DNA from: Candidatus Woesearchaeota archaeon
GTDB taxonomy: Archaea; Nanobdellota; Nanobdellia; Pacearchaeales; GW2011-AR1
DNA: 43,282 bases
Direction of reading: 5' to 3'
Assembly: GCA_964624735.1 (NCBI GenBank)
Contig: CAZUXN010000002.1
Span: forward strand, 1 to 43,282
Below are positions 17,160-17,364 of this stretch, in pieces. A program made the translations under genes and the position numbers. How positions within the stretch are numbered: position 1 is the first letter of the stretch; each line of letters begins with the position of its first letter. The notes under the pieces were generated by a model that saw nothing but the letters and a program-made list of their open reading frames with translations, did no database searches and was not told the DNA's origin.

Positions 17160-17364
17160 TCAATCTCATAAATTCTTATAAAGTCTTGAGATTGTTTTGA
17201 TTGATGGTAGAGGATGCGACGGTTTGGCGGGAGACGATTAAGAATTTGAATAACAAGATGGGAAGTTGATTCCGTTTGAGGAAATTACAAAGGCGTTGGT
17301 TGGGAAGATGAGCGAGACTGATATTGATGAAGTTGTTGGGAAGCTGTTGAAGGCGGGGATTTGA
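17160..17364 (+). pseudogene. Chimeric ghost: RPA-gene promoter plus first ~30 nt fused to the last ~135 nt of mcm
   Basis: TCAATCTCATAAATTCTTATAAAG..ATGGTAGAGGATGCGACGGTTTGGCGGGAGAC, then GATTAAGAATTTG..GGGGATTTGA. About 90% identical by hand alignment to mcm 15807-15942, with a 1-nt deletion that breaks the frame. Confidence 0.85.

Follow-up and report, generated by a model that had tools for sequence, protein, structure and literature searches.

A joint between the start of an RPA32-like gene and the end of mcm in a cassette array of a small DPANN archaeon

Gene content of the interval between mcm and the RPA32-like gene

The window, i.e. the whole stretch of 43,282 nucleotides that was analyzed, is contig C2 of the 576-kb genome of a small DPANN archaeon, which is assembled in 35 contigs and has a G+C content of 39%. 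In this contig 2.7 kb of accessory DNA separates mcm (13939-15978) from an RPA32-like gene (18705-19364). The product of the latter matched the PDB entry for RPA32 of the Pyrococcus RPA complex (E = 5.7e-10, residues 10-152) and the Pfam OB fold PF01336 (32.8 bits), its assignment being supported both by homology and by the presence of an OB fold. The features of the region are listed below, with P standing for copies of the RPA promoter core and the prime for ghosts of the two genes.

13939-15978, forward strand: mcm, intact, 679 aa (open reading frame; NF040949 MCM, 701 bits)
15804-15941, forward strand: 3' segment of mcm, codons 623-667, parent-type sequence of the mcm' ghost (repeat with 17227-17362)
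15979-16156, forward strand: G+C-rich hairpin-type spacer after mcm (sequence reading)
16157-16447, forward strand: orf96, cargo without family match (open reading frame; family search)
16462-16479, forward strand: P0, ghost of a truncated RPA promoter core, broken within the TATA box (0 mismatches)
16476-17086, reverse strand: TA1 cassette, ParE-like toxin (16476-16820) and antitoxin (16817-17086) (family search; alignment with the sister species G041)
17159-17203, forward strand: P1, full copy of the RPA promoter core, and leader 1 (repeat comparison)
17204-17234, forward strand: RPA' ghost 1, first 10 codons (MVEDATVWRE) of the RPA32-like gene (alignment)
17222-17234, forward strand: switch zone, where the parents match at 10/14 positions, with the perfect core GGAGA at 17230-17234 (alignment)
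17227-17362, forward strand: mcm' ghost, mcm codons 623-667, winged-helix domain lacking the final 12 codons (alignment)
17367-17838, reverse strand: TA2 cassette, ParE toxin (17367-17618) and DUF7557-like antitoxin (17620-17838) (family search)
17886-18013, forward strand: P2, leader 2 and RPA' ghost 2 of 30 codons (repeat comparison)
18017-18589, reverse strand: NYN-domain gene cassette, including a promoter and a leader hairpin of its own (NYN, 86 bits)
18660-19364, forward strand: P3, leader 3 and the intact RPA32-like gene (gene at 18705-19364; open reading frame, PDB and Pfam matches)

The toxin of TA1 matched ParE_toxin with an E value of 3.8e-4, which is below the cut-off, and that of TA2 with 32 bits, which is above it. 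P0 is joined to the stop codon of the TA1 toxin, the string TTTTAT being common to both at the joint, whereas ghost 2 ends in a stop codon that was created at its own joint (18018-18020). Ghost 2 is the orthologue of a ghost found in a sister species, termed here species S; the region of P2 and ghost 2 is 82% identical to 18661-18787 and 85% identical to the ghost of species S, and the junction of ghost 2 with the NYN gene is the same in both genomes. TA2 and the NYN gene each sit between promoter/RPA-start copies of 76-127 nt. P1 (17159 onwards) and P3 (18660 onwards) have a 24-nt core in common, with P2 lying inside the block that they enclose. A spacer of like kind to that at 15979-16156 was also found 3' of mcm in species S and in the relatives G041 and G047.

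The live RPA32-like gene carries 11 extra codons (IERGTPLDSKHQTGQR) at 18826-18875, where its relatives have LGDRKI or LGEKRV. This insert holds a 7-bp inverted repeat (CCCCGTT...AACGGGG), and positions 18841-18875 match contig C8 (3185-3219) at 89%.

The mcm-RPA gap was compared among 49 species representatives of the genus. In eight of them (G005, G009, G011, G012, G013, G018, G020 and G023) only 35-130 nt, holding the conserved promoter, separate the stop codon of mcm from the RPA start, and the ancestral order in the genus is that of an RPA promoter placed directly 3' of the mcm stop. At least nine other species carry unrelated cargo of 0.4-2.7 kb at this place, a recurrence of unrelated insertions which makes the gap a hot spot. 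In G008 (L021 10173-10835) the RPA promoter is duplicated, with 96% identity over 45 nt, copy 1 driving a plus-strand cargo gene of 171 aa and copy 2 driving RPA, an arrangement that reads as a cassette having captured a copy of the host promoter. The mcm gene itself is interrupted after residue ~416 in four species (G001:C19, G005:C1, G019:C20 and G049:C35), the open frames extending to 977-1151 aa, a pattern which fits an intein in the ATPase domain.

The joint between the RPA start and the mcm end

The string ATGGTAGAGGATGCGACGGTTTGGCGGGAGAC, at 17204-17235, lies behind a copy of the promoter core, and its ATG has the same spacing as that of the real RPA start. The promoter core (TCAATCTCATAAATTYTTATAAA) was found at 17162, 17889 and 18663, with a partial copy at 16462, and nowhere else in the 576-kb genome, in which 0.03 matches would be expected by chance. 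When the 32 nt from the ATG of ghost 1 were aligned with the ghost at 17931, 23 of the 32 positions were identical (binomial P = 3e-7), and that ghost was the top match among 17,144 ATG-anchored 32-mers of the genome. As chance matches of 22/32 do exist genome-wide, the coding part of ghost 1 is by itself modest evidence, and it is the promoter anchor that makes its RPA identity conclusive; the similarity to the RPA start on which the first-pass annotation had relied thus held up on alignment. The first 15 nt of ghost 1 are identical to the RPA start of the relative G005, and its allele is of the G005/G047 type, differing from the live RPA start of its own genome (MENAVS...).

On the other side of the joint, 17227-17362 is 90.6% identical to 15804-15941 of mcm (E = 1.5e-45), the alignment placing the start of the parental mcm sequence at 15804 and not at 15803 as was given before. 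With a promoter-anchored RPA start on one side and this match on the other, the proposed joint between the 5' end of RPA and the 3' end of mcm at GGAGA is confirmed. The motif lies at 17230-17234 in the joint, at 15807-15811 in mcm and at 17957-17961 in the RPA ghost. It had been described as the sole bases shared at the switch, and it is indeed the only perfect shared run; however, it ends a stretch of 14 nt in which both parents match at 10 of 14 positions, so that the switch point may lie anywhere in 17222-17234. According to our own calculation, the chance of finding microhomology of at least 5 nt at a random joint is ~0.007. Since the ancestral order is mcm followed by the RPA promoter, an RPA 5' end followed by an mcm 3' end represents a downstream point joined to an upstream one, and this adjacency, together with the microhomology at the joint, supports the head-to-tail topology that had been suggested.

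The reading frame is kept across the fusion, RPA codon 10 being followed by mcm codon 624, up to a G run at 17260-17262 where a deletion of 1 nt results in a frameshift and a stop at 17267-17269. At its far end mcm' stops 12 codons before the mcm stop and 3 bases from the stop codon of the ParE toxin. Considering both the deletion and the ParE cassette which removes the 3' end, the fusion is dead, with no present function of its own, and the whole stretch is best described as the fossil of an illegitimate-recombination joint. Ghost-specific substitutions number 5 in the 36 nt beside the joint vs 3/100 nt, a difference (Fisher P = 0.03) that does not suffice as an argument for error-prone joining.

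Among the sequences compared, the resident mcm comes closest to mcm' (92% over 105 columns, vs 85-87% for G041 and G047). Both share two to three derived states (ACA, AAY-AAG), while mcm' keeps the ancestral base at three sites changed later in the live gene and has six to eight changes of its own. These affinities and ancestral bases point to a close relative as the donor and to an event that is not very recent. The two to three derived sites linking mcm' to the resident mcm could also reflect gene conversion between repeats lying 1.4 kb apart.

Four other assemblies carry an identical joint (100%): the metagenome contigs of JGI 3300031654, in which 12299-17319 is covered, and of JGI 3300031553, which covers 16942-21343 and whose four SNPs relative to the window all fall elsewhere; and the Logan unitigs (k=31) of SRR9707989 and SRR9705735, covering 15838/15848-17289, both of which span from one copy of a 40-nt repeat to its partner. 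As these four independent assemblies hold an unchanged copy, the joint is real DNA. An assembly artefact was considered and ruled out, given that 40 nt is the longest exact repeat between mcm and mcm' and that the joint is crossed by four further assemblies. The frameshift, which follows codon 19 of the fusion, was likewise found in every assembly.

Haplotypes of the sister species

The haplotypes of two sister species were taken as ancestral junctions for comparison. The order in G041 is mcm-spacer-orf383-TA1-promoter-RPA; its mcm has 86.2% nucleotide identity to that of this genome, and at the position of orf96 there is an unrelated ORF of 383 aa. TA1 is the orthologue of the cassette that adjoins the RPA promoter in G041, and its divergence equals that of mcm (87.8% vs 86.2% nucleotide identity); P0 is absent from that species. 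Homology with G041 runs through TA1 into P1 up to TATAAAG and then resumes at leader 3 and the live RPA gene. The block from leader 1 to P3 being absent from G041, the extra block of this genome is bounded by P1 and P3.

Species S has been assembled twice (JGI and ENA), with copies that are 99.94% identical. It has a full mcm, a spacer of 160 nt, a promoter ghost, TA2, P2, an RPA ghost of 30 codons, the NYN gene, P3 and RPA, and carries neither TA1 nor the RPA'|mcm' joint. The promoter ghost is cut just 3' of the TATA box, where the stop codon of TA2 adjoins it. Its mcm is 86.7% identical to ours and the block from TA2 to RPA is colinear at 84.8%. The array of this genome hence reads as the left half of G041 and the right half of species S, welded at the joint.

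The three promoter/RPA-start copies differ among themselves by 25-27% and also differ in their nearest relatives. Copy 3, the leader and start of the live RPA gene, is 87% identical to G041, whereas copy 1, the one in the joint, is without a close partner (64-70% to all) and has a start of the G005/G047 type. The identity between RPA ghost and live RPA start reaches 97.6% in species S (L099/L104 291-416 vs 1066-1191), compared with 82% in this genome; such likeness suggests that gene conversion took place between ghost and live gene in one lineage, or that the live 5' end was replaced in the other.

The left end of TA2, at the stop codon of the toxin (CTAATTG..., 17363-17369), follows mcm' in this genome and a promoter ghost in species S (L104 1713-1745, minus strand as read). 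TA1 and NYN likewise terminate at stop codons, which could mean either that the cassettes have a defined breakpoint or that all dispensable sequence has been trimmed. In 49 genus genomes and 45 metagenome loci, all relatives of TA2 except that of species S were found in unrelated contexts, and the nearest relative of the NYN gene within the genus (G055, 80%) had no flanking ghost.

Fragments of mcm also occur in the gap of two other species. In G047 (contig C87, L044, 1822 nt) a 3' fragment of mcm begins ~12 nt downstream of the breakpoint of this genome and is intact to its stop (an ORF of 47-51 aa), being followed by the post-mcm spacer, a minus-strand ORF of 120 aa and promoter-RPA. Upstream of it are found an A/T-rich stretch and the end of a gene similar to that of ribosomal protein L3. 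The last 50 nt of this fragment resemble G019 more than its closest relatives; it could be a rearrangement, a mosaic or a mis-join. In G015 (L026 2224-2751) the gap between mcm and RPA contains an intact ORF of 175 aa, which over its last ~65 residues duplicates the C-terminal winged-helix domain of MCM at 42% identity. Its N-terminal part is novel and A/T-rich, and the ORF may represent a ghost of the mcm end that became a gene. On the other side of RPA, G041 (L041 7290-8000) carries 3' of the gene a HicAB-like two-gene cassette flanked by a 3'-end ghost of the neighbouring 269-aa gene.

Origin of the joint

Taken together, we lean towards an origin by import, which seems to us somewhat probable on the sequences compared: a TA2/NYN-type unit, closed head-to-tail, would have entered a G041-like chromosome via the promoter core. 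In the order of events that we infer, the mcm-RPA gap of a close relative held the cargo TA2, RPA ghost and NYN, as that of species S still does. A unit running from the 3' end of mcm through this cargo to RPA codon 10 would then have been closed head-to-tail at GGAGA, yielding a circle or, alternatively, a tandem dimer with this closure as its junction. The block from promoter to promoter, with the closure joint inside, would have entered a chromosome carrying mcm...TA1-promoter-RPA, as in G041, by a homologous crossover within the identical 24-nt promoter core, i.e. by a Campbell-type insertion-duplication. Later decay would have brought the frameshift and removed the 3' end of mcm' along with the spacer and the promoter ghost beside TA2. 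We favour an imported unit because the two units carry unrelated cargo (orf96/TA1 vs TA2/NYN), because each half of the array stands alone in a sister species, because promoter copies mark the precise limits of the block that G041 lacks and because the three promoter/RPA-start copies differ in their nearest relatives; the affinities of those copies are what such a model, with a resident G041-like RPA and an imported block, would predict. Against it, the live RPA of species S starts with MEESAP and not with MVEDAT, so that the proposed donor allele would be one as yet unsampled, and gene conversion in species S, as hinted by the 97.6% identity of its ghost and live gene, could blur the allele affinities.

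The topology and the 5-nt microhomology are also exactly those of a tandem-duplication joint, and the stretch could have arisen in situ, by replication slip or unequal sister exchange in this lineage, as a microhomology-mediated duplication from mcm codon 623 to RPA codon 10, the cargo of one or both units being replaced afterwards. That mcm' is closest to the resident mcm, with derived sites in common, agrees with such an origin, as does the fact that this kind of duplication is a conserved process (PMC13167724). Yet the two units (spacer-orf96-P0-TA1 vs TA2-ghost-NYN) have no common cargo and no cassette is found twice, and the promoter/RPA-start copies show the 25-27% difference given above and have different nearest relatives. 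Furthermore, TA2-ghost-NYN is ~15% divergent from species S and appears older than the ~9% divergence of mcm and mcm', therefore a duplication must have copied the block and then lost one copy, with orf96-TA1 taking its place, and we regard an in-situ origin as unlikely. Homology-facilitated illegitimate recombination (HFIR) of linear DNA, in which a cell of one haplotype receives a fragment of the other, with one homologous crossover in mcm or RPA, one microhomology joint and no circle, would explain why one side is homologous and the other shows microhomology; indeed a linear fragment with one homologous and one illegitimate crossover yields topologically the same product. Both parental haplotypes are found in sister species, the DNA that is additional to the array of species S has the mcm 3' end as a direct repeat on either side, and an origin of this kind has been proposed for similar arrays in Vibrio T6SS and Rhs loci (PMC5361080). 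Such an event predicts, however, that ghost 1 is the L-type allele (that of the G041-like left parent) and the live RPA the R-type allele, whereas among the sampled haplotypes the allele of the live copy belongs to G041 (L-type) and that of ghost 2 to species S (R-type); nor does it give a reason for the exact coincidence of promoter copies with the limits of the difference from G041. The RPA-start affinities hence suit a crossover in the promoter better, and HFIR appears to us quite improbable here. Conversely, G041 could have arisen from a similar array through a P1xP3 deletion, nothing having been inserted in this lineage; even so, the promoter repeats would still be recombination handles.

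Three and a half copies of one 18-24-nt core, toxin-antitoxin and nuclease genes of the type typical of integron cargo, and a TA2 left end at the same nucleotide in two contexts could all be read as the outcome of site-specific capture, integron-like or Xer-mediated, with the promoter core as att site; archaeal integrons do occur in Nanoarchaeota (PMC9668308), and the genome encodes two XerA-like recombinases. These proteins of 274 and 270 aa are encoded on other contigs and match TIGR02249 in two pieces, with 196 and 182 bits against a cut-off of 265, and no IntI was found. Neither strand of 15950-18760 holds a RYYYAAC...GTTRRRY pair as in attC sites, inverted repeats at the cassette boundaries did not exceed A/T-rich chance matches and gave no folded boundaries, and a search of Rfam families gave no match; an integron is thus excluded for practical purposes. 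In addition, the duplicated segments are of 18-138 nt, reach into coding sequence and vary from gene to gene, and the RPA'|mcm' joint itself lies away from the core, all of which makes site-specific capture highly improbable. The XerA-like genes lie in the regions C4 18727-20290 and C22 8524-9336, the one on C4 being adjoined by an ORF of 184 aa resembling the C-terminal 'recombinase' part of large serine recombinases without the catalytic domain. A further reading would take the fusion as a working chimeric gene, from which a small MCM winged-helix protein is expressed under the RPA promoter, since it is in frame behind a complete promoter and intact stand-alone MCM winged-helix ORFs exist in the same gap of G015 (175 aa) and G047 (47-51 aa). 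With the frameshift present in all assemblies and the domain lacking its last 12 codons this is scarcely credible; the relatives found for the read-through product were the fragment of its own genome and the 47-aa fragment of G047.

Comparison with known systems

The recombination mechanism is a variant on known kinds of recombination. As in Campbell-type insertion-duplication, direct repeats of the target (RPA promoter and 5' end) enclose an insert that has no recombinase, and the sister species G041 has an 'empty' site, with the target in single copy between the same flanks and the homology shifting from the P1 side to the P3 side within the core. It differs in that the homology amounts to only ~24-75 nt of promoter, that the circle is a proposed one, and that the insert holds a closure joint made from both flanking essential genes.

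HFIR and displacement arrays were reportedly treated by Jackson and colleagues in 2009, and insertion with long target duplication of selfish gene modules is said to have been treated by Nobusato and colleagues in 2000. Displacement arrays have in common with the present case one homologous anchor and one microhomology joint, serial events which leave strings of orphaned gene ends, and an exchange of arrays among relatives by homologous recombination. In bacteria, such arrays, of effector/immunity or Rhs genes, have been ascribed to HFIR (Kirchberger et al. 2017, PMC5361080). The orphaned ends there are those of polymorphic-toxin genes, whereas here they are promoter-bearing 5' ends and one 3' end of housekeeping replication genes, in a DPANN archaeon without a known competence system.

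Long target duplication was described for restriction-modification modules of bacteria by Furuta, Abe and Kobayashi 2010 (PMC2853133), whose screen yielded no archaeal case. Their definition asks for a selfish module without mobility genes between direct repeats of >30 bp that are present as one copy in a relative; here TA2 and NYN lie between copies of 76-127 nt and the target is single-copy in eight species. In contrast to the modules described there, those found here are ParE toxin-antitoxin and NYN genes, and one of the repeats adds a piece of mcm. With microhomology-mediated tandem duplication (PMC13167724) the locus shares a downstream-to-upstream joint at few common bases, but the 'copies' are unlike in cargo and age, so that a simple local duplication does not fit, and two adjacent copies of a whole segment are not what is seen. 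Integrons, including archaeal ones (Ghaly et al. 2022, PMC9668308), similarly stack promoter-proximal cassettes rich in toxin-antitoxin genes on one platform; unlike them, this array has no IntI and no attC, its repeats are the host gene's own promoter and start, and its cassettes have their own promoters, mostly facing the platform promoter.

Similar scars at other genes

Joints of like kind were found at the locus and in species S, namely P0|TA1, RPA' codon 30|NYN stop and, in species S, promoter ghost|TA2. Elsewhere in the genome, cassettes of 0.5-1.6 kb lie between gene-end copies of 50-138 nt at cbf5, topA, pgk, htpX, a glycosyltransferase gene and an Fe-S protein gene. Among the eleven ghost-flanked inserts of this genome no common end motif was seen.

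Genomes of ultra-small archaea differ mainly by small cassettes wedged against essential genes, and to our knowledge they hold few or no classical mobile elements. Most such scars show merely a gene-end duplication. The joint described here holds a piece of mcm, therefore the incoming DNA would come from the same locus of another chromosome and have been closed head-to-tail. We put forward, as a possible though rather doubtful reading when taken as a whole, that a recombinase-free cassette platform exists in DPANN archaea, formed by the RPA promoter core and by equivalent gene ends such as those of cbf5, topA and pgk. Selfish blocks may leave as circles closed by microhomology between two flanking essential genes and may integrate into the chromosome of a relative through homologous crossover at the 24-nt promoter repeat, the RPA'|mcm' joint being possibly a preserved point of circle closure; ghost promoters may also fire antisense into the toxin and nuclease genes and tame them.

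The joint and the two sister haplotypes provide a worked three-way reconstruction of how cargo is stacked and removed, one which needs only host recombination and a short promoter repeat. The joint would be a record of the selfish cassette sets of two related strains, stacked at a hot spot without a dedicated integrase. If general, this would be a simple, integrase-free way of spreading toxin-antitoxin and nuclease genes, and it would explain the clustering of such genes at the starts and ends of core genes.

Regarding the individual scars, ghost-flanked cassette regions lie at C7 18010-19820, C7 26661-28223, C10 1735-2477 and C15 812-1654. At topA (28564-30152) the promoter at 29987-30035 is duplicated at 28564-28612, before an alpha/beta-hydrolase gene (28593-29348), and the first ~40 codons (30029-30152) are duplicated at 29395-29518 with 92.7% identity, the start and the upstream sequence being different; between the topA copies lies a cassette of two minus-strand genes (29527-29942). 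Of the glycosyltransferase gene, the 3' end is present three times, around a HEPN/nucleotidyltransferase pair and an NYN gene, and the 5' end of pgk twice, around two NYN genes; the 5' end of the Fe-S protein gene is also found around NYN genes. The youngest case is that of htpX, whose 3' end occurs in two copies of 98% identity around a MazF-type pair.
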